Source of the DNA: a virus
Lineage: Duplodnaviria; Heunggongvirae; Uroviricota; Caudoviricetes
Reading direction: 5' to 3' (one strand)
Length of the DNA stretch: 13,418 bases
IMG/VR virus record: IMGVR_UViG_2778261416_000004
Coordinates: 1-13,418 of that record
Shown: positions 1 to 13,418 of the stretch, piece by piece
How the letters are laid out: the number at the start of each line of letters is the position of its first letter
How positions within the stretch are numbered: position 1 is the first letter of the stretch
The notes under the pieces: generated by a model
What the model was told of the DNA's origin: nothing
Databases searched by the model: none
Seen by the model: the letters and a program-made list of their open reading frames with translations, nothing else
Made by a program: the position numbers and the translations under genes

Positions 1-558
1 ATGAATACAGCTATAACTTTTTCTAACGAGTCACCAAAAGTCTTTTTCAAAGATGGTCGCCTGGTTACCACCTCTCAAGCTGTTGCCGACTACTTCGATA
101 AACAACATAAACACGTTTTAGCTAAGATTGACACACTCGACTGCTCTCCCGAATTTACATCAGCCAACTTTTCGGCCGATGTTCAGACTGTCGAAATTGG
201 CAACGGCGCAGAACGTGAATCACGATGCTACCTGATCACAAAAGACGGCTTCATGTTCCTCGTAATGGGATTTACTGGCAAAAAAGCAGCCAGACTAAAA
301 GAAGCTTACATTGAAAAATTTAACGCAATGGAAGAAGAACTCCACAAACGTCCTCCTGCAGCACAAAACTCCCCCGCCCCAAATAATGGATGCGCATTAC
401 TGATCCACTTCGATAAACACGGTCAGGTCGAGTTCACAGAAAAAGTCCCCGCCGATGCGATGGTATGCACGCTGGAACGGTTTAAATTTTATCTGGAGCA
501 ACATGGGTGGATCGTTGCCCGTAAAGAACAATTGGTGGAAAGGTTGATGCGGTTTTAA
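1..558 (+). CDS. rha: Rha-family phage regulatory protein (Phage_pRha-like)
   Basis: 185-aa ORF starting at window position 1. N-terminal 'LVTTSQAVADYFDKQHKHVL' and the 'DGFMFLVMGFTGKKAARLKEAYIEKFNAME' block match the Rha signature as I recall it. Stop TAA at 556-558, followed by a hairpin terminator. Confidence 0.7.
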   Translation: MNTAITFSNESPKVFFKDGRLVTTSQAVADYFDKQHKHVLAKIDTLDCSPEFTSANFSADVQTVEIGNGAERESRCYLITKDGFMFLVMGFTGKKAARLKEAYIEKFNAMEEELHKRPPAAQNSPAPNNGCALLIHFDKHGQVEFTEKVPADAMVCTLERFKFYLEQHGWIVARKEQLVERLMRF

Positions 559-567
559 TGAATGCAA

Positions 568-598
568 AACCCCGGATGATCACCGGGGTTAATTTTAT
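568..598 (+). terminator. Rho-independent terminator-like hairpin after rha
   Basis: Perfect 8-bp stem aaccccgg/ccggggtt with 7-nt loop (568-590), followed by aattttat. Confidence 0.55.
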
Positions 599-919
599 CG
601 AGCGTGATTGCCGCTAATCGCCATCGCTCTGATTGAGCGTAAATCATTCAGGTTATTCAGTTCTTCCTTCTGCTCTCGCTGACGTCAATAAATCCCATCA
701 TTGCGATCAACCTCATCCTTAACCATTGATGCGAGCAGTTCTTCCAGTTTCTGCGCTGACAGCTTTACCTGGTGATCTTCAGCATCTTCCCGGGCTATTG
801 TGGTTCGCGCAGTGGCTGATTTTGCTGACATCACCACAGGGGGCAGACGGACCATTGAACCATGGCCTCCGGAACAAATAAGGGCAAAAATAACAACCAC
901 TATCGAAAGCTCACAAACT

Positions 920-1137
920 AACCGCAGCACGTTCCTGCATACGACGTGTCTGCGGCATAATCCCAATGATTACTCCCTGACAGGATTTGCAGGCCACTCA
1001 ATATCAGGTGCAGTTGATGTATCAACACGATTCAACAATACCCGATATTTATTCCATGCCTCCAGCAACGATCTTTCTTCCTCCGTTGCGATTTCCAGAT
1101 CTACAGCATCCTGCAGTGGCGCAATATACTCACTGAA
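920..1137. repeat. Direct repeat copy 1 (~215 bp, tfa 3'-end derived), left flank of methyltransferase island
   Basis: About 88% identical by eye to 1970-2187 in the same orientation. Covers the 3' end of the short tfa-like ORF and a downstream hairpin (922-955). Confidence 0.8.
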
Positions 1138-1239
1138 TTCCTGGATGTAGAACTGTGTGGTGACGGTCTTCCAGCCATTCGGCTCCTGCTGTATCGAAGC
1201 ATACCAGGCTATTTCAATATCGCTATGCTGCGGCAGCAT
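970..1239 (-). CDS. Short tail fibre assembly (Tfa)-like protein; C-terminal Tfa domain with unrelated 38-aa N-terminus
   Basis: 89-aa ORF. C-terminal ~50 aa ('[45 protein letters not shown]') near-identical to the C-terminus of the full tfa at 2019-2603. ATG at 1239 is preceded by an AAGGGG SD-like motif. Confidence 0.55.
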
Positions 1240-1295
1240 TTAACCCCTTGTAATTCATCGCCATAATTGATTTAATTCACAAATAAAACTATAAC

Positions 1296-1964
1296 ATGGT
1301 GAAATCAATGAAAAAAAACACAGATGATGGGGCTAAAATTTACACACCACTTACCCTAAAGCTTTATGACTGGTGGGTTTTGGGAGTATCAAATCGGCTT
1401 GCATGGGGATGTCCTACAAAGGAACACCTTCTTCCACACTTTCTGGAACATGTAGGTAACAACCATCTGGATATTGGTGTTGGAACTGGGTTTTACCTTA
1501 CTCACGTACCTGAGAGTAGTCTGATATCTTTAATGGATTTGAACGAAGCTAGCCTGAACGCGGCATCTACAAGGGCTGGGGAATCAAAAATTAAACATAA
1601 AATTAGCCATGATGTTTTTGAACCTTATCCCGCGGCGTTACATGGTCAATTTGATTCCATTTCCATGTTTTACCTTCTTCACTGCCTGCCTGGAAATATA
1701 TCTACAAAAAGCTGTGTAATACGCAATGCGGCGCAGGCCTTAACTGACGATGGAACTCTATACGGAGCCACAATTCTTGGCGATGGAGTTGTGCACAATA
1801 GCTTCGGTCAAAAACTGATGCGCATTTACAATCAGAAAGGCATCTTTTCAAACACAAAAGATTCCGAAGAAGGCTTAACACATATACTCTCAGAGCATTT
1901 CGAGAATGTTAAAACCAAGGTTCAAGGTACTGTAGTAATGTTTTCCGCTTCAGGGAAAAAATAG
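1296..1964 (+). CDS. Class I SAM-dependent methyltransferase (moron; substrate unknown)
   Basis: 222-aa ORF with motif I 'HLDIGVGTGFY', an acidic post-I residue ('LMDLNE') and motif II-like 'FDSISMFYLLHCLP'. AT-rich relative to neighbours. ATG at 1308, with a GGTGA SD-like motif 6 nt upstream, may be the true start. Stop TAG at 1962-1964. Confidence 0.75.
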   Translation: MVKSMKKNTDDGAKIYTPLTLKLYDWWVLGVSNRLAWGCPTKEHLLPHFLEHVGNNHLDIGVGTGFYLTHVPESSLISLMDLNEASLNAASTRAGESKIKHKISHDVFEPYPAALHGQFDSISMFYLLHCLPGNISTKSCVIRNAAQALTDDGTLYGATILGDGVVHNSFGQKLMRIYNQKGIFSNTKDSEEGLTHILSEHFENVKTKVQGTVVMFSASGKK

Positions 1965-1969
1965 CATCC

Positions 1970-2187
1970 AACCGCAGCACGTTCTTGCTTAAGACGTGCT
2001 GCGGCATAATCCCAATGATTACTCCCTGACAGGGTTCGTAGGCCACTCAATATCAGGTGCAGTTGATGTATCAACACGGTTCAGCAACACCCGATACTTT
2101 TTCCAGGCTTCCAGCAATGAGGTTTCTTCCTCCGTTGCAATTTCCAGATCTGCAGCATCCTGAAGCGGCGCAATATGCTCACTGGCT
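1970..2187. repeat. Direct repeat copy 2 (~215 bp), right flank of methyltransferase island; covers 3' end of tfa
   Basis: Aligns with 920-1137 by eye. Contains a perfect 11-bp-stem hairpin (1972-2004). Confidence 0.8.
1972..2004. terminator. Hairpin between convergent methyltransferase and tfa genes (candidate bidirectional terminator)
   Basis: ccgcagcacgt / acgtgctgcgg, 11-bp perfect stem with 11-nt loop, in the 54-bp gap between convergent stops. No clean U-tract, so terminator function is uncertain. Confidence 0.4.
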
Positions 2188-2603
2188 ACCTGCATCAGGT
2201 TGTTTTTTGTTTCTTCCGCCTCCCGGATCCGGAACAGTTTTTCTGCTTCCGTATCCTTCACCCAGGCTGTGCCGTTCCACTTCTGAAACTCCCCTTCCGG
2301 CGATAACCAGGTAACATTTTCCGGTAACGGACCGAGTTCAGAAATAAATAACTCGTCCCCTGACGCTACGTCATAAACCGTTTTACCCCGATGGTCTTCA
2401 ACGAGATGCCACGATGCCTCATCACTGTTGAAAACAGCCACAAAGCCAGCAGGAATATCTGGTGGTGCAATATCGGTACTGTTTGCTGGCAGACCTGTAT
2501 GAGGCGGAATATATGCGTCACCTTCACCAATAAATTCATTAGTTCCGGCCAGCAGATTATAAATTTTTATGGTCCGTGGTTGTTCACTCATTCTGAATGC
2601 CAT
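2019..2603 (-). CDS. tfa: Tail fibre assembly protein Tfa (lambda Tfa-like)
   Basis: 194-aa ORF; '[39 protein letters not shown]...' matches lambda Tfa as I recall it. Start ATG overlaps the stf stop (TAATG at 2601-2605), a typical stf-tfa coupling. Confidence 0.9.
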
Positions 2604-3976
2604 TATGCAAGCCTCACAATATAGTTAAATGCGATGTTTTTGACGGTGTTTTCCGCGTTACCCGCAGCGTTAACGGTGATGGTGTGTCCATGTGAACCAA
2701 TCGCAACGGAGTGCGTATGCGCACCAATACCTACAGTATGTGCATGTGCGCCAGAACTTGCTGCAGTACCAGACAGCGAGTGGGTATGAGCACCTGCTGA
2801 CTGTGTCTGAATACGTTGATAATACGATCTATAGGAAGAAGTCTCCGGGCTTACTTGATACTGTGAATTCTGGACATAAGTGAACCCACCGCCATCATAA
2901 AATGCTAACGCAGAACCGCCGCCTCCTGGCCAACGAATACCATTACCATGAGTATGAACACCGGCAGACCCCGTAGAGCCACTCAGACTGTGCGTATGCG
3001 CCCCGGTGTTATTCGTGGATTTAGTGCCGTAATCAAACGACGATGTGGTTTTCGTCCCCAAATCCGTACTGGATGCGCTGGCGCTGTGGGTGTGCGATTT
3101 AATGCCGTCCTGTTCCTGAGACAATACGGCCCGGCCACTGGCGGGTTTGCCCTTGATTGTCCAGCCGCGCATATCTGGAATAACACCTGAAGGATAGGCA
3201 ATAGCCAGTTTCGGATATGCTGCCTTATCAAACGTCTGCCCCTGCATGATTGCATAACCTGCAGGTGGTGTATCTGATGGCCACGGCAGCGGAACACCTG
3301 GCGGAAACGCTTCAATATTTGCCGAGCCGTCAAATTTTACGCCGTTAATTGTCCTTGCAGTTTGCAATTTGGTTGCTGTGCTTGCATTACCCGATAAAGA
3401 TCCAGTGATACCACCACTCGCGTTTAATTTAGTTGCAATTGTAACATTGCCAGTATGGTTACTAATTATAAACGGCCTTAAGCTATTGTGCGTACCAAGA
3501 CTGTTACCCGAATCTGTCAACATAAAATATGTGTTTGATCCATCATTTCGGATAAAGAATCCATAGTTGCCATAGGCAATACGCAGACCATTTGCTGACC
3601 TTGAAATAACCTCACCAGCAGCAGTTAAACCACCTGAAAGAGTCCCTCCAGTTAATGCCAATGCCCCAATATTTGAAGGGGTCAATGTGATATTTGCACT
3701 ACCATCAAATGACACACCGTTAATCGTTCTGGCTGCCTGAAGTTTCGTGGCGGTCGCAGCATTACCTGTAGTGTTTTGATTACCGGTAGCGTTGACTCCA
3801 GGCAAGTTGATATCTGCCGATCCATCAAATGCCACGCCCCCAATCTTACGTGCTGTCTTGATCTTGGTCGCAGTATCTGCGTTTCCGGTCAAATTACCAG
3901 TAACACTACCACCAACTTTTAGTCCATTACCGATGGACACCAACTCATGCAGGCGTCTCAGACGACCCACTGACAC
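2603..3976 (-). CDS. stf: Side tail fibre protein Stf, C-terminal portion (5'-truncated; GTG start, no SD)
   Basis: 457-aa ORF with repeated 'GNA(S/D)TATKLQ(T/A)ARTINGV(K/S)FDGSANI' fibre repeats and a His-rich 'GAHTHS' C-terminal region ending '[11 protein letters not shown]', like lambda Stf. The frame stays open upstream to 4066 with no ATG; first start-like codon is GTG at 3976. Confidence 0.8.
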
Positions 3977-6096: not shown

Positions 6097-6104
6097 GTCC
6101 ATAA

Positions 6105-6340
6105 GAAAGCCCCTCCGGAGAGGGGCTAAAGCCGCGTATCTGTATCATCATGCACATGGTGCCGGGTGCCTCCCGGTGAGTTCAGCCCGGTGCCACTAAA
6201 CCCGCGTCATTCTCGTTTTGATAATCAGAGATTATACCGTCACCAGTCGCCCCTCCGCTCAGGGGGATTCACCATGCGAAATTTTTTTAACAAATGCCCA
6301 GTCTGACAGGCAACTGTCAACTTACTGAATTGTGAGCAAC
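6105..6340. repeat. Non-coding direct repeat module A (~235 bp)
   Basis: Shares with module B a perfect 20-nt palindrome agcccctccggagaggggct (6108-6127), 'gcatggtgccgggtgcctcccggtga', 'gcccctccgc.cagggggattcaccatgc' and 'ctgaattgtgag' blocks. Also carries TTGACA and TATAAT hexamers on the minus strand and a CTGACAG-N4-CTGTCAA inverted repeat. Confidence 0.7.
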
Positions 6341-6591
6341 ATAGCATTTAACGGGGAACCTGTTTTCTGCAGTAAAAAGGCCCACCGGAGCGGATGGGCC
6401 TGGAAGGATAGCGGTCATGTGATGCCGGTTTCCCGGTAACTCAGCACCGGTATCTGAGTCAACGTTTTCTCTACTGGGTCATTTCCGATACGCCCTGCCT
6501 GCTGACAGGCTTTCATCACATCTGAAAATATAGCACCCTGACTGATACTGTAGTACCTAAGGTTCCAGAAACTGTGATGTATCCGGCACAG

Positions 6592-6808
6592 AAAAGCCCC
6601 TCCGGAGAGGGGCTGGAGAGTGGCGCTATGTGCCATTGCATGGTGCCGGGTGCCTCCCGGTGAATTCAGTACCAGCACCTGAATCCGCGATTATCCCATA
6701 TACCTACTCGCTGATTGCCCCTCCGCACAGGGGGATTCACCATGCCAGTTTCTTTTAACAAACTCCCCGCAAACCAGACAACAGTCAACCGCCTGAATTG
6801 TGAGACAT
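6592..6808. repeat. Non-coding direct repeat module B (~217 bp)
   Basis: Second copy of module A (roughly 75-80% identity by eye). The palindromic hairpin at 6595-6614 is followed on the minus strand by TTTTCTG. Confidence 0.7.
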
Positions 6809-6849: not shown

Positions 6850-6926
6850 TGGCGCGTTGTACTGGATTCGAACCAGTGACCGATTGCTTAGAAGGCAATT
6901 GCTCTGTCCGGCTGAGCTAACAACGC
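6850..6926 (-). tRNA. argO: tRNA-Arg (anticodon UCU)
   Basis: Manual fold of the reverse complement: acceptor GCGTTGT/ACAACGC, D-arm GCTC...GAGC, anticodon loop CTTCTAA, T-arm ACTGG-TTCGAAT-CCAGT, discriminator G, CCA; 77 nt. Confidence 0.85.
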
Positions 6927-6939
6927 AGGATACAGATAA

Positions 6940-7016
6940 TGGACCGCCTTCGGGGACCCGAACTCCGCGCAACCAGCTTCGAAGGCTGGCGCTCTTTCCT
7001 GATGAGCTAATGGCGG
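6940..7016 (-). tRNA. argN: tRNA-Arg-like (anticodon UCG), possibly degenerate
   Basis: Cloverleaf with anticodon loop CTTCGAA and 3' CCA, but an A.A mismatch in the acceptor stem, an A.C mismatch in the T-stem and an atypical T-loop TTCGGGT. Confidence 0.55.
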
Positions 7017-7023
7017 TATGTGA

Positions 7024-7099
7024 TGGTGGCCCTTGCTGGATTTGAACCAGCGACCTGGCGATTATGAGTCGCTCGCTCTCACCACTGAGCTAAAGGGCC
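7024..7099 (-). tRNA. ileZ: tRNA-Ile2/Met (anticodon CAU; ileX-like, likely lysidine-modified Ile)
   Basis: Reverse complement GGCCCTTTAGCTCAGTGGTGAGAGC...CTCATAA...GCTGGTTCAAATCCAGCAAGGGCCACCA gives a canonical 76-nt cloverleaf, closely resembling E. coli ileX as I recall it. Confidence 0.85.
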
Positions 7100-7148: not shown

Positions 7149-7577
7149 TCAAACGATTAAATCCTGAACTTCCCTGACTGTCTGCTCAAAACGTCCGGTC
7201 TCCAGTTCAACGCCAATCGCACGACGCCCGAGCGCCAGTGCCGCTTTTACCGTTGAACCTGAGCCCATAAAAAAATCTGCAACCAGGTCACCCGGACGAC
7301 TGCTTGCGCTGATTATCTGCTGCAGCATTTCTGCCGGTTTTTCGCACGGATGTTTCCCGGGATAGAACTGCACCGGTTTATGTGTCCACACATCCGTGTA
7401 CGGCACCTGCGCCGTCACACCAAAATACCGCCGCAGATGCTTATATTCACTCTGCAGCTCCACATACTGCCGGTTCAGTGACGTATACGTATCCACCAGC
7501 TGGTGGTGGGGCTTTTCCAGTTCACCGCGCTGATGTTTCTCTTCTGCTACCAGAACAGGTCGAAGTAATACCCGCAC
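7149..7577 (-). CDS. DNA (N6-adenine/N4-cytosine) methyltransferase, C-terminal portion (truncated or frameshifted)
   Basis: 142-aa ORF with 'GKHPCEKPAEMLQQIISASSRPGDLVADFFMGSGSTVKAALALGRRAIGVE', i.e. the HPxxKP and FxGSGST (SAM-binding) motifs of beta-class MTases such as YhdJ. No DPPY motif in this ORF; GTG start abuts the stop of the upstream ORF in another frame. Confidence 0.7.
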   Translation of the reverse strand: MRVLLRPVLVAEEKHQRGELEKPHHQLVDTYTSLNRQYVELQSEYKHLRRYFGVTAQVPYTDVWTHKPVQFYPGKHPCEKPAEMLQQIISASSRPGDLVADFFMGSGSTVKAALALGRRAIGVELETGRFEQTVREVQDLIV

Positions 7578-8018: not shown

Positions 8019-8174
8019 TTACTCCTCAGGTTCGTAAGCTGTGAAGACAGCGACCTCCGTCTGGCCGGTTCGGAGTCGTACCTCGCAGAGGTCTTTCCTC
8101 GTTACCAGTGCCGTCACTATGACGGTTAAACAGATGACGATCAGGGCGATTAACATCGCCTTTTGCTGCTTCAT
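8019..8174 (-). CDS. hok: Hok/Gef-family type I toxin (HokD/RelF-like small membrane protein)
   Basis: 51-aa product 'MKQQKAMLIALIVICLTVIVTALVTRKDLCEVRLRTGQTEVAVFTAYEPEE' aligns with plasmid R1 Hok ([38 protein letters not shown]). ATG at 8174 has an AAGGGGAAG SD; an in-frame upstream extension to 8231 (70-aa ORF in the track) could be a mok-like leader ORF. Confidence 0.85.
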   Translation of the reverse strand: MKQQKAMLIALIVICLTVIVTALVTRKDLCEVRLRTGQTEVAVFTAYEPEE

Positions 8175-8411
8175 AGCCTGCTTCCCCTTGCCTTTCGGCA
8201 CGTAAGAGGCTAACCTACATTTGTGAGACATAGATTGGGCCTCAGATTAATGTTAAGCGTCTTGCAGGACGCGAAATGTTAACTGGGGCTTTTCTCTATC
8301 TGCCTTTCAGTGTTCATGCCTGAGACAGATAGCCTCAAGCACCCGCAGCCATTCTACTTAACTCACGTCACCTCGCCAATATGAAATCAATCAGAAAGGT
8401 GATCCATAAAA

Positions 8412-9677: not shown

Positions 9678-9717
9678 AAGCCCTCCTGAAAATTACCTCA
9701 TGACCAGAAATTAACAC

Positions 9718-10695
9718 TTACCCCCTGAAGCCCGGCGGAATTTCAGTGTCCGGTTCAGAAATGTGATTCACGCAACGCTGCGCAGGCGAACGCCCCAGGC
9801 GGATAACCAGTTCATCCCATTTTTCCCGGAGTTTTGCCGGACTCATGATGTTTTTTACCCAGAACGAATCCCGCTGGAGACGCCCAAACATTTCACAAAT
9901 TTGTCTGTGAGTTCTGCCATCCAGCATCCGCATTGTGCGAACGTCATTGGCCCATGCTGTCCAGTTGGGTTCTTTCGGTCTAGTGATCTCGCCATCATCG
10001 CTGGCCGCCTGCTCGTAAAGACTCACGATTCGTCCCCAGATCCACTGTGCGCACACCAAATCTTCCTGACTTCCCCACTGGCGTTTTTTCGCACTGAACA
10101 CAACCGCGTCAGGGTGTCGGGTTAAAAAATCCTGTTCAGCCGTCTGCGGGTCCGGTTGCGAAGCGTCCGGACAAGAAGATCTTTTATCTGACGGATCAGG
10201 TTTTAATACTGACGGATCGGGGTCAATCATCGCCCCCCTAATCGGCAGTTTTTTATCAACAGTTGATCCATCAAAATTTGACGGGTCAACCGTTGAGGGG
10301 TCAATATTTGACGGGTCAACTGTTAACGGGTCATTTTTTGCCGGGCTAATTTTTCTTTTCGGTTTATATGACTCACGCGCCGCCGCCGCAGCTGCTTCGA
10401 GTTTTTCCACATTAAGCCGATAGATATTGCTTACATTACGCCCACCGACCTTACGCTCTTCCTTCGTCAGCCAGCCCTCTTTCGCCAGTTCTGCAATAGC
10501 CGATTTCACTGTGGATTCACTTCTTGCACCGATCTGACGCCGGATAGTTTCAATGGCAGGCCATGACACGCCCTCGTCATTGCTGTAGTCTGCAAGACGG
10601 GCCATAACCGCCACCCTGGATAAGATCATGCCGGTGAAGGCGCACCCTTCCCAGACAAGACCATGAAGCTTGCTGCTCATAAAACCCCCGAACAC
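9718..10695 (-). CDS. Phage replication initiator (O-like; N-terminal winged helix, internal iteron-encoded repeats)
   Basis: 325-aa ORF; N-terminus 'AFTGMILSRVAVMARLADYSNDEGVSWPAIETIRRQIGARSESTVKSAIAELAKEGWL' is a typical replication-initiator wHTH. Internal 'DPSNIDPSTVDPSNFDGSTVD' repeats are encoded by DNA iterons. Likely true start is ATG at 10680 (GGGGGT SD); the track start is GTG at 10695. Confidence 0.8.
   Translation of the reverse strand: MFGGFMSSKLHGLVWEGCAFTGMILSRVAVMARLADYSNDEGVSWPAIETIRRQIGARSESTVKSAIAELAKEGWLTKEERKVGGRNVSNIYRLNVEKLEAAAAAARESYKPKRKISPAKNDPLTVDPSNIDPSTVDPSNFDGSTVDKKLPIRGAMIDPDPSVLKPDPSDKRSSCPDASQPDPQTAEQDFLTRHPDAVVFSAKKRQWGSQEDLVCAQWIWGRIVSLYEQAASDDGEITRPKEPNWTAWANDVRTMRMLDGRTHRQICEMFGRLQRDSFWVKNIMSPAKLREKWDELVIRLGRSPAQRCVNHISEPDTEIPPGFRG
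10185..10370. repeat. Candidate phage origin of replication: iterons plus adjacent A/T-rich stretch inside the initiator gene
   Basis: Four 15-bp-periodic units TTGACGGGTCAAC / TTGAGGGGTCAAT / TTGACGGGTCAAC / TTAACGGGTCATT at 10278, 10293, 10308 and 10323, plus degenerate copies at 10188-10228, followed by the A/T-rich 10336-10370. Confidence 0.6.
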
Positions 10696-10702
10696 CGTGC
10701 TT

Positions 10703-11020
10703 TTAGTGCATCACCACAGCATTCCCTGCCGGGCCGCCGCGATTCATCTGGTCATACAAAACAACCGCTGACGCAACAAAATCATCGACATCCTTCACCA
10801 GCCGATCCCTCCGTTCGACGATCTCACGATAATATTCAGAACTGTGGCTGCGCATACGGGCCACCAGCAAAGGCGGCATCGCCTTTTCGATCGCCGGTAA
10901 CAGAGCCTGCATTTTTTCAACAGCATCAGGGGTGTCTTTCTCTACCCAGCGGAAAATTTTCTGGGTATTGCGAGCCAGGGCTTCCGGATGGCTGTCGTCA
11001 TACAGTTCTGGGAACGTCAT
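10703..11020 (-). CDS. Hypothetical protein (about 105 aa) upstream of the replication initiator
   Basis: Plausible amino-acid composition, whereas the overlapping plus frame is a low-complexity P/S/H-rich read-through. ATG at 11020 (track start is TTG at 11026); weak SD. Function unknown. Confidence 0.5.
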   Translation of the reverse strand: MTFPELYDDSHPEALARNTQKIFRWVEKDTPDAVEKMQALLPAIEKAMPPLLVARMRSHSSEYYREIVERRDRLVKDVDDFVASAVVLYDQMNRGGPAGNAVVMH

Positions 11021-11064
11021 ACCCAACTCAAAATAAGCCTGGGTTAAGGGGAAATGAGGTCAGC

Positions 11065-11220
11065 ATGGATACTATCGATCTTGGCAACAGCGAATCTCTG
11101 GTATGTGGCGTGTTCCCCAACCAGGACGGTACGTTCACCGCGATGACGTATAACAAAAGCAAAACGTTTAAAACCGAAAATGGTGCCCGTCGCTGGCTGG
11201 AAAGAAACTCAGGTGAGTGA
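11065..11220 (+). CDS. ydfA: YdfA-like small protein (51 aa), first gene of dicB-type operon
   Basis: ATG at 11065 with GAGG SD. 'MDTIDLGNSESLVCGVFPNQDGTFTAMTYNKSKTFKTENGARRWLERNSGE'. The sizes and order 51-42-72-DicF-62-62 match the Qin dicB operon. It is the C-terminal end of the track's spurious 185-aa ORF. Confidence 0.7.
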   Translation: MDTIDLGNSESLVCGVFPNQDGTFTAMTYNKSKTFKTENGARRWLERNSGE

Positions 11221-11221
11221 T

Positions 11222-11350
11222 ATGGATTTCGACACAATCATGGAAAAGGCTTACGAAGAATACTTCGAAGGTCTTGCCGAAGGCGAAGAAGCTCTCAGCT
11301 TCAACGAATTTAAACAGGCGCTTTCCAGTTCGGCAAAATCTAACGGCTGA
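11222..11350 (+). CDS. ydfB: YdfB-like small protein (42 aa)
   Basis: ATG at 11222, 1 nt after the ydfA stop, with AGGTGAG SD. 'MDFDTIMEKAYEEYFEGLAEGEEALSFNEFKQALSSSAKSNG'. Absent from the ORF track because it is under 60 aa. Confidence 0.65.
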   Translation: MDFDTIMEKAYEEYFEGLAEGEEALSFNEFKQALSSSAKSNG

Positions 11351-11379
11351 TAAGCGAAACAGCACCGCGAGGAATCAGT

Positions 11380-11598
11380 ATGCAGAAACGAGAACCCGTC
11401 ATCATCGCGCCAGACTATACCGATGATGAACTTTATGAGTGGATGCACCAGAAAATTAATGCAGCGCAGGATCTGAAATGGGCCAATGAAGCCAGGGCTA
11501 AGCAGGCTGAAAATCTGTCCGCTCTGGAGCAGGATATCACTAATCTGGAAAAAGCAGCGGCATTAAGCATTGCCAGAATGATTACATACCCGCGTTAA
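11380..11598 (+). CDS. ydfC: YdfC-like small protein (72 aa)
   Basis: ATG with GAGGA SD; position and size match ydfC of the dicB operon. Confidence 0.7.
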   Translation: MQKREPVIIAPDYTDDELYEWMHQKINAAQDLKWANEARAKQAENLSALEQDITNLEKAAALSIARMITYPR

Positions 11599-11939
11599 TA
11601 GCTAACCAACGAAGCTAAGGTTGGTAATTAAGGAGTTCTCCACGGGTCAGGTGGAGTGCGTGCGCCGGACACGGGTGAGCATCCGGCACTGACAGCTTAC
11701 TGAAAGGATATGTCCCTGAAAAGTCAGGGCATAACGCGAAAGCGCACGGCGAAATTGGTCTCTCTGTACGGTGTCGTTAAATTTAGTTCGACCGTGCGCT
11801 TCCGGTTGTGGCACTCCGCGAAATGGCGCGGCGGTAAGTATGGCTGGGGTTTCCTCCATTGCTCCAGAAAATGCACCGGGTTGTCAGGTTGACCATACGC
11901 TTAAGTGACAACCCCGCTACAACGCCCTCTGTTATCAAT

Positions 11940-11997
11940 TTTCTGGTGACATTTGGCGGTATCAGTTTTACTCCGTGACTGCTCTGCCGCCCTTTTT
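11940..11997 (+). ncRNA. dicF: DicF small regulatory RNA (ftsZ-targeting sRNA of the dicB operon)
   Basis: 'tttctggtgacatttggcggtatcagttttactccgtgactgctctgccgcccttttt' matches the DicF sequence as I recall it, including the terminator stem GGCGG...CCGCC plus U-run. Confidence 0.75.
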
Positions 11998-12175
11998 AAA
12001 GTGAATTTTGTGATGCGGTGAATGCGGCTATGCGCACGCGGAACAGTTAAAGCAGTAAGGCGGTATTTTACGGGCGTAACGAGCATCAACTAACCCGGCG
12101 TTAATTGTTAACTGGTTAACGTCACCTGGAGGCACCAGGCACTGCATCACAAAATTCATTGTTGAGGACGCGATA

Positions 12176-12364
12176 ATGGAAACGTTATTACCAAACGTTA
12201 ATACGTCTGAAGGTTGTTTTGATATTGGTGTTCTGCTCAGTAACCGGGAGTTTACTGAAGATGCCATTAATATGAGGAAATATGAGCCTTATCTGCTCAA
12301 TGATAATTCCATACTTTCCCGAATTGCTCTTCTTGAACTTGGTATTTTCGGAGAACGTCAATGA
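12176..12364 (+). CDS. dicB: Cell division inhibitor DicB homolog (62 aa)
   Basis: 'METLLPNVNTSEGCFDIGVLLSNREFTEDAINMRK...' matches the DicB N-terminal half as I recall it. GAGGA SD. The C-terminal half looks divergent. Confidence 0.8.
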   Translation: METLLPNVNTSEGCFDIGVLLSNREFTEDAINMRKYEPYLLNDNSILSRIALLELGIFGERQ

Positions 12365-12549
12365 CTTCAGCATTTGCACTGATGATGACGGTTTTTCTTA
12401 TAACGGGTGAATCACAGAATGTGATTACCGGAATTTATGCAAGTAAAGAATCCTGCCTCCAGGCAAGAGACGAGCAAAAAATTTCTGGTGAATGCCTCCC
12501 GCTAAAAAAAGTATCGCTGTACCTGAATAACGAAACACCGGCTGGATAA
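12361..12549 (+). CDS. ydfD: YdfD-like small protein with N-terminal hydrophobic segment (62 aa)
   Basis: ATGA start/stop overlap with dicB and GGAGA SD. 'MTSAFALMMTVFLITG' is a TM/signal-like segment followed by a hydrophilic tail with two Cys. Confidence 0.7.
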   Translation: MTSAFALMMTVFLITGESQNVITGIYASKESCLQARDEQKISGECLPLKKVSLYLNNETPAG

Positions 12550-12644
12550 CCCTCCAGCCATATTAACACCATACCAACGGATTAAAAATGCCAGCAATGG
12601 CAGGGATTCGTTCACCCTGAAATCTGTAATGAGGTTAAAACAAA

Positions 12645-13418
12645 ATGAGTAAGGTCTTTATTTGCGCTGCTATTCCTGATGAACAGGCCATAAAAGAAGA
12701 TAGCGCTGTTGCGGTGGCCACTGCCATTGAAGCCGGTGATGAGCGTCGCGCACGCGCAAAATTTCATTGGCAATTTCTGGAGCAATTCCCTGCAGCTCAG
12801 GACTGCGCTTATAAATTTCTTGTTTGCGAGGATAAACCCGGTATACCCCGCCCTGCCCTCGATTCCTGGGATGCTGAATATATGCAGGAAAACCGCTGGG
12901 ATGAGGAGTCTGCTTCCTTTGTCCCGGTTGAGACTGAATCAGATCCGATGAACGTCACTTTTGACAAGCTGGCCCCTGAAGTACAGAACGCTGTCATGGT
13001 TAAGTTCGACACATGTGAAAACATCACCGTTGATATGGTTATTAGCGCACAGGAATTGTTGCAGGAAGACATGGCAACATTCGACGGACATATCGTTGAA
13101 GCGTTGATGAAAATGCCAGAAGTTAACGCCATGTACGCTCTCTGGCCTGGTGATGTGGATGCCGGAAACATTGACGGCAGCATCCATCGCTGGGCAAAAA
13201 ATGAAGTTATCGACAACGACCGCGAAGACTGGAAGCGTATCTCGGCATCAATGCGCAAACAGCCTGATGCCCTTCGCTACGACCGCCAGACTATTTTTGG
13301 CCTTGTCCGTGAGCGTCCGATCGACATTCACAAAGATCCCATAGCACTGAACAAATATATCTGCGAATACCTGACGACAAAGGGCGTGTTTGAGAATGAA
13401 GAAACAGACCTGGGCACT
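12645..13418 (+). CDS. ydfE: YdfE-like protein, 3'-partial (runs off the window end; at least 258 aa)
   Basis: Translated by hand from ATG 12645 (GAGG SD 9 nt upstream): 'MSKVFICAAIPDEQAIKEDSAVAVATAIEAGDERRARAKFHWQFLEQFPAAQD...'. Open to position 13418 with no stop; not in the ORF track because it has no stop in the window. Confidence 0.7.
   Translation, partial: MSKVFICAAIPDEQAIKEDSAVAVATAIEAGDERRARAKFHWQFLEQFPAAQDCAYKFLVCEDKPGIPRPALDSWDAEYMQENRWDEESASFVPVETESDPMNVTFDKLAPEVQNAVMVKFDTCENITVDMVISAQELLQEDMATFDGHIVEALMKMPEVNAMYALWPGDVDAGNIDGSIHRWAKNEVIDNDREDWKRISASMRKQPDALRYDRQTIFGLVRERPIDIHKDPIALNKYICEYLTTKGVFENEETDLGT

Follow-up and report, generated by a model that had tools for sequence, protein, structure and literature searches.

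A common dicB–ydfD allele with a diverged DicB C-terminal half

A pair of overlapping small genes in a tailed-phage sequence raises the question of whether they encode an unusual division-inhibitor and lysis pair or a known form of DicB and YdfD. We analysed the window, i.e., the whole stretch of DNA around these genes (13,418 nt; IMG/VR record IMGVR_UViG_2778261416_000004), for its gene content, for its relation to the dicBF operon of the Qin (Kim) prophage of Escherichia coli K-12, and for the history of the segment in which the two differ.

Gene content and assignment of the two proteins

The right part of the window, read on the plus strand, has a gene order that agrees with those of the K-12 Qin dicBF operon and of UTI89. 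The first gene of this dicBF-type operon is a ydfA-like gene (DUF1391, 51 aa; 11065..11220), upstream of which only the ribosome-binding site is left; its translation agrees with K-12 YdfA and is 95% identical to the DUF1391 protein of the ompW-adjacent prophage of E. coli AR_0013 (L002; BLAST). Two frames from the list of open reading frames follow: a ydfB-like small ORF (42 aa; 11222..11350), recognised by its place in the K-12 operon layout and with a translation that we take to be like that of K-12 YdfB, and a ydfC-like ORF (72 aa; 11380..11598), placed as in the K-12 and UTI89 layouts. The DicF sRNA gene (11941..11992) matches the full model of Rfam RF00039 (positions 1–52; 77 bits, gathering score 48), has one mismatch to K-12 dicF, and lies 184 nt upstream of the start of dicB. 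The spacer between dicF and dicB contains a variable patch (12052..12095) that is 33–57% identical to K-12, between flanks that are 97–100% identical; the conserved dicB leader (12096..12175) also shows 97–100% identity. This variable patch lies in the untranslated leader and has the look of another small mosaic segment, in addition to the one described below. Then come dicB (62 aa; 12176..12364), the ydfD homologue (DUF1482, 62 aa; 12361..12549), both of the allele class that we call B, and the 5′ part of a large prophage exonuclease gene of the ydfE/exoO type (12645..13418; PHROG 2082 ‘exonuclease’, 626 bits, in agreement with the L002 annotation), which extends past the end of the window. 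At 13134–13135 the exonuclease gene is without about 275 bp that are present in AR_0013 (L002 15237–15510), yet no stop codon closes the frame before the window ends, which suggests an in-frame length variant. Overall, the locus is very probably the canonical early-left ‘dicBF’ module of a lambdoid prophage, ydfA-ydfB-ydfC-dicF-dicB-ydfD-exonuclease, carrying the second of two widespread classes of dicB-3′/ydfD alleles.

The two overlapping genes almost certainly encode members of the DicB and DUF1482/YdfD families. The window DicB matches the Pfam DicB profile PF05358 over its whole length (positions 1–62 of 62; 125.5 bits, cut-off 27) and NCBIfam NF049927 (DicB) with 114.2 bits (cut-off 100). 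The protein downstream matches PF07358 (54 bits, cut-off 25), with its residues 4–61 on profile positions 1–57 of 57, and PHROG 1092 (114.8 bits). It aligns with K-12 YdfD without gaps at 44% identity, has an N-terminal hydrophobic segment (AFALMMTVFLITG; mean Kyte–Doolittle value of 2.1 over residues 4–16), and carries two cysteines, C32 and C45, both conserved in K-12 YdfD. The start and stop codons of the pair overlap as ATGA at 12361–12364. The K-12 genes share the same 4-nt overlap, and it reads GTGA in some class-B subvariants. A preliminary description of the window had reported the first 62-aa ORF, whose translation is exactly as it was quoted, and an ATGA-coupled second one, also of 62 aa, with a hydrophobic helix and two cysteines; these features are all present. 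It had also noted an AT-rich patch. The GC content is indeed 0.37–0.43 over 12150–12650, against about 0.49–0.5 around it, but this is not special to the variant, as K-12 dicB (36% GC) and ydfD (43% GC) are AT-rich to an equal degree. We thus rejected the idea that the patch is a foreign insertion specific to this form.

Deletions around the module and its probable silence

Compared with the intact ompW prophage of AR_0013, the window lacks about 1.1 kb (L002 11769–12880) at a deletion junction with GTTA microhomology (11043..11046). The missing segment comprises the N-terminal part of ydaT, a Cro-like gene, the gene of a DicA-like repressor, and the promoter/operator region, and it stops 22 bp short of the ydfA ATG. 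A tblastn search of the window returned no DicA, cI-like, or Cro-like repressor homologue, and the junction is absent from all 5426 complete E. coli genomes. In K-12, no promoter of the operon other than dicBp, upstream of ydfA, has been detected, and dicBp is derepressed when DicA is lost (PMC10448788). Because the dicBp region is deleted, the dicF-dicB-ydfD module is probably transcriptionally silent in the window copy, or weakly read through. This argument combines one intact relative with a crude consensus scan, in which 10400–12700 held no sigma-70-like site (2.8 expected), and is compatible with read-through or a weak cryptic promoter. The joint loss of repressor and promoter in a single deletion would be tolerated, and the window copy illustrates a way in which a prophage may keep a toxic module, namely by losing both together. 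The same deletion leaves the frame of ydfA open for about 134 codons upstream, giving a 185-aa ORF (10663–11220, plus strand) antisense to ydaT and an HTH gene; this potential fusion product is probably meaningless.

Further junctions are found to the left. Around 7542–7551, relative to AR_0013, the Q antiterminator, RusA, DUF968, and part of a DNA methylase gene are lost, and at 9686–9714 the DUF1627 and DnaC-like genes. The methylase gene is truncated and the tail-fibre genes abut a SASA esterase gene. From this context, we read the window as what extensive deletion has left of an ompW-type prophage, apparently without most of its late genes. Positions 1–3976 are not joined to the ompW-prophage matches among the complete E. 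coli genomes listed; they contain a fragment of a Rha-family regulator (1–558), an ORF for a SAM-methyltransferase (1296–1964) and, on the minus strand, a tail-fibre assembly gene (2019–2603), which contains the Rfam element ‘IS009’ (2062–2260), and the tail-fibre gene that directly abuts the esterase gene (2603–3976). The late-regulatory region of the prophage, read on the minus strand, holds two copies of the STnc100 sRNA family (6097–6306 and 6584–6774; 165 and 136 bits) with three tRNA genes beside them (6853–7099). A hok/sok-type toxin–antitoxin locus, also on the minus strand, lies at 8019–8344 (Rfam sok at 8169–8344, 120 bits), and its 70-codon ORF (8019–8231) corresponds to the region annotated as hokD in AR_0013.

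These deletions bear on a reading in which the dicB–ydfD pair is here an unexpressed passenger of a decaying prophage, one that survives only because the loss of the promoter made it harmless. We regard this as evenly balanced between true and false. It fits the removal of the immunity and promoter regions, that of Q, RusA, DUF968, the DnaC-like region, and most late genes, and the outcome of the sigma-70 scan; the junction, being unique when compared with the 5426 genomes, is probably recent. On the other side, the two ORFs, the DicF gene, and the leader show no damage and do not differ from their counterparts in intact prophages; they are hence functional if transcribed, a point that is silent on expression itself. 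The two readings do not compete: an inert copy is compatible with the preferred reading, that of a canonical dicBF module with a class-B allele.

Two allele classes and the boundaries of the diverged segment

The members of the DicB family retrieved in a search of 5.8 billion proteins sort into two classes by their C-terminal half (C-half): class A, the K-12 form (...ERELLNKICIVSMLARLRLMPKGCAQ), and class B, the form of the window (...EPYLLNDNSILSRIALLELGIFGERQ). Class-B-like C-halves are also found among the DicB homologues of Salmonella and Citrobacter. The window DicB aligns with K-12 DicB without gaps, with 39 identical residues out of 62 (63%), of which 28 fall in the 35 residues of the N-terminal part and 11 in the remaining 27 (36–62). 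The divergence thus lies where the preliminary description had placed it, in the half following a DicB-like N-terminal part; it was also right about the K-12 C-terminus, as the pairwise alignment shows no full-length identity to K-12 DicB. Its further statement, that this half is unrelated to the K-12 protein, was too strong. Taken alone, the 27 residues match positions 36–62 of the Pfam DicB profile with 36.7 bits (E = 3.4e-9), where the C-half of K-12 itself scores 48.8 bits. Their gapless BLOSUM62 score against K-12 is 26, against −25 ± 11 for shuffled sequences (n = 100,000; p = 5e-5). The alignment of 29 family sequences shows that E37, S48, and A51 are invariant in both classes and L41 and I46 nearly so; the other positions invariant over both classes are M1, L5–N7, N9–S11, G13, F15, G18, F26, D29–I31, R34, and K35. 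Two proteins, P0058 (...YERYLFNDICIVSLLALFGLVLFGCGQ) and P0112, are intermediate between the two forms. On these sequence comparisons, the C-half is homologous to that of the family.

At the DNA level, the window and K-12 are 90–100% identical from DicF to about codon 16 of dicB, except for the spacer patch, and 70–80% identical in a variable patch at about codons 19–26. Identity then drops to 27–73% over a mosaic cassette of about 320 bp on the plus strand (from about 12275 to about 12590; 12275..12590 in our feature list), made of DicB codons ~34–62, ydfD, and the 3′ spacer, with flanks that are mostly 87–100% identical. Ahead of the exonuclease gene, at ATGCCAGCAATGGCAGG, it climbs back to about 90%. 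A small inverted repeat, TGCCAGCAATGGCA (12589..12602), lies at the right edge of the cassette, exactly at the point from which the window resembles K-12 again; our scan flagged it on the minus strand only. The repeat, which precedes the exonuclease gene, is conserved in class A as well as in class B. Relative to K-12, dS is 0.33 in codons 1–35 of dicB, 2.1 in codons 36–62, and 1.4 in ydfD. As dS is low in the first 35 codons and saturated beyond them, the locus is a recombinational mosaic of a young and an old segment, with one breakpoint inside dicB. The divergence of the cassette from K-12 is old and sharply bounded, and the cassette is inherited as a block.

Both classes are widespread. 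Counting the best copy per genome rather than all copies, 1017 of the 5426 complete E. coli genomes (about a fifth) have the class-B cassette and 3946 have that of class A. In nearly all matching records (1018/1021 for class B, 3955/3981 for class A), 80% or more of the cassette is covered by the best match. By inclusion–exclusion, several hundred genomes probably carry both classes, which is a soft bound. Short megablast queries of 84 and 185 nt found 710 and 824 genomes, respectively, instead of 1017; they lose subvariants that are about 90% identical and are uninformative on recombinants. Variants of the N-terminal half combine freely with either class of C-half (recombinants P0005, P0011, and P0068). 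Within the cassette, the 80 best IMG/VR matches, all of them with a class-B DicB, included no A/B recombinants; wherever the ORF downstream of dicB could be read, it was a DUF1482 gene of class B, overlapping by ATGA or GTGA. That the DicB C-half and ydfD are so linked is most simply explained by homologous recombination, which can resolve only in the conserved sequence on either side. Class-B sequences compared with one another give a dN/dS of about 0.12 for the DicB C-half and 0.2–0.27 for ydfD, values based on small counts, which argues for purifying selection: both are maintained coding sequences, and the C-half is no decayed tail.

The class-B allele is also well represented in public data. 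The exact DicB and DUF1482 proteins of the window each occur, under these names, on at least 1000 public contigs. A stretch of 751 bases around dicB–ydfD is 100% identical to the ompW-adjacent lambdoid prophage of AR_0013, where RefSeq annotates the products as ‘cell division inhibition protein DicB’ (WP_000449175.1) and ‘DUF1482 family protein’. In a phage collection, the class-B allele occurs in ‘PPompW’ prophages and in the Stx2a phages integrated into them, annotated as cell division inhibition protein. The ‘dicB’ primers used in a study of O157:H7 end in TCATTGACGTTCTCCGAAAATAC, the reverse complement of window positions 12342–12364, so that earlier work has already deleted and quantified the class-B gene as dicB (PMC6915034). 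In the literature we searched, we found no paper that sets out two DicB classes and no experiment on class-B division inhibition, filamentation, or dependence on MinC or ZipA. We considered the dicB gene of the UTI89 filamentation screen as a functional test of class B and rejected it, since the UTI89 gene is of class A. Hence, the class-B dicB–ydfD pair is a common, already annotated, and essentially ordinary allele. The preliminary description, which proposed a variant division-inhibitor and lysis or exclusion pair, possibly with altered partner specificity, holds in that these are variants of DicB and YdfD, diverged where it said; they are not unusual homologues.

Function of the class-B proteins and comparison with known systems

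Mechanistic work on DicB and YdfD has been done almost entirely on the K-12 allele. In K-12, DicB binds the C-domain of MinC, and the complex goes to ZipA at the septal ring and dismantles FtsZ rings; the same DicB–MinC interaction, for which MinC E156A and R172A were studied, lies behind the exclusion of ManYZ-using phages (PMC6832061). The N-terminus of K-12 DicB is essential, as each N-terminal truncation tried, or L5A, abolishes toxicity, while mutation of K2 is tolerated. Its last 8 residues are dispensable (ΔC8 is active), and ΔC12, ΔC16, and ΔC20 are non-toxic, so that the segment 43–54 is needed (PMC4967827). Lysis by K-12 YdfD, which binds IspG, depends on division and is masked while division is blocked, by DicB as well as by SulA (PMC8835842). 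By homology, the class-B DicB would act via MinC to dismantle FtsZ rings and block division, it may also block the entry of phage DNA that depends on ManYZ, and the downstream DUF1482 protein would be a lysis protein of the YdfD type. The window DicB conserves the N-terminus essential in K-12, including L5, along with R34 and K35: its residues 3–15 are those of K-12, with E instead of K at position 2. In residues 43–54, 4 of 12 are identical (I46, S48, A51, and L53), most hydrophobic positions are kept, and the basic residues are lost; over the C-terminal helix, the hydrophobic positions L40, L41, I46, V/L47, L/I50, A51, L53, and L55 are retained. We find it fairly likely that the class-B DicB would prove to be a MinC-dependent division inhibitor. 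AlphaFold single-chain models of both classes are helical and of modest to low confidence, and we give little weight to the difference in helix geometry between class B, with a broken C-terminal helix (helices 24–36, 38–42, and 46–54; pLDDT 74), and class A, with a single long helix (24–60; pLDDT 66). No relative was found in the PDB by sequence or by Foldseek.

About one fifth of complete E. coli genomes, including those of O157:H7 and other STEC, carry a C-half that is 59% different from that of K-12 and oppositely charged, and the transfer of K-12 results (MinC/ZipA dependence, ManYZ-linked phage exclusion, IspG inhibition) to class B is not to be assumed. The class-B C-half might retarget DicB, the two classes then being non-equivalent modules kept by selection; for instance, MinC binding by the N-terminal half might be kept and the septal/ZipA or ManYZ-related interaction altered, or the C-half might be matched to its own YdfD. 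We think this unlikely. It would agree with the change at 16 of the 27 positions of the C-half, with the turn in net charge from +3 in K-12 DicB to −5 in the window protein, and with the functional requirement for segment 43–54 in K-12. It would also agree with the near-constant pairing of DicB C-half and ydfD allele, with the conservation seen inside each class, and with the several hundred genomes that probably hold both, within the soft bound given above; distinct modules, if real, would explain the joint inheritance and the genomes that seem to keep both classes. However, inheritance as a block is expected anyway from recombination in the flanks, with no need for functional coupling, and the hydrophobic positions of the helix are retained. 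SulA also masks lysis by K-12 YdfD, which makes a direct contact between DicB and YdfD unnecessary (PMC8835842). A real change of partner specificity in class-B DicB is about as improbable or slightly more so, and we consider improbable the specific proposal of functionally distinct classes in which an acidic C-half redirects the DicB–MinC complex with respect to ZipA or the septal ring, to ManYZ-linked exclusion, or to its own YdfD.

The proposal that the C-half arose by a frameshift or non-homologous replacement, leaving a DicB N-domain fused to unrelated sequence, could appeal to the mere 11 of 27 identical residues and to DNA identity down to 30–60%, but we rejected it as practically without chance, given the gapless, statistically significant in-frame alignment, the profile match of the C-half alone, the shuffle test, the intermediates P0058 and P0112, the class-B-like C-halves in Salmonella and Citrobacter, and a within-class dN/dS of about 0.1.

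Among known systems, the closest is DicB of the K-12 Qin (Kim) prophage (b1575, NP_416092.1). Like the window protein, it has 62 aa, belongs to the same Pfam and NCBIfam families, aligns without gaps at 63% identity, is preceded by a near-identical leader and shares the first ~34 codons almost unchanged, and is encoded downstream of DicF in ydfABC-dicF-dicB-ydfD. The window protein differs from it in a C-half that is 41% identical and contains Pro38 and Gly56/Gly59, in its net charge (−5 vs +3), and in its setting, since the window allele is found in ompW-type lambdoid prophages, here without DicA and dicBp. Qin YdfD (b1576; DUF1482, PF07358) resembles the second protein in its 4-nt overlap with dicB, its length of about 62–63 aa, its hydrophobic N-terminus, the two conserved cysteines, and a C-terminal ‘E.PAG’ motif. 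The two are 44% identical, the C-terminal domain is neutral in the window protein and acidic in K-12, and PGAP names the former ‘DUF1482 family protein’, not ‘lysis protein YdfD’. The dicB–DUF1482 pairs of PPompW and O157:H7 prophages (e.g., LC567836, WP_000449175.1) are of the same class as the window pair, with an identical copy in AR_0013 and 95% identity in the PPompW phage copies; these prophages keep the immunity region, Q, and the replication genes, whereas the window has lost all three. Lambda Kil, Rac KilR, and e14 SfiC/YmfM are likewise small proteins of prophage early regions that, according to the literature, block FtsZ-ring function. Unlike the window DicB, they have other targets and mechanisms and are not linked to DicF, and we saw no sequence relationship between them and it.
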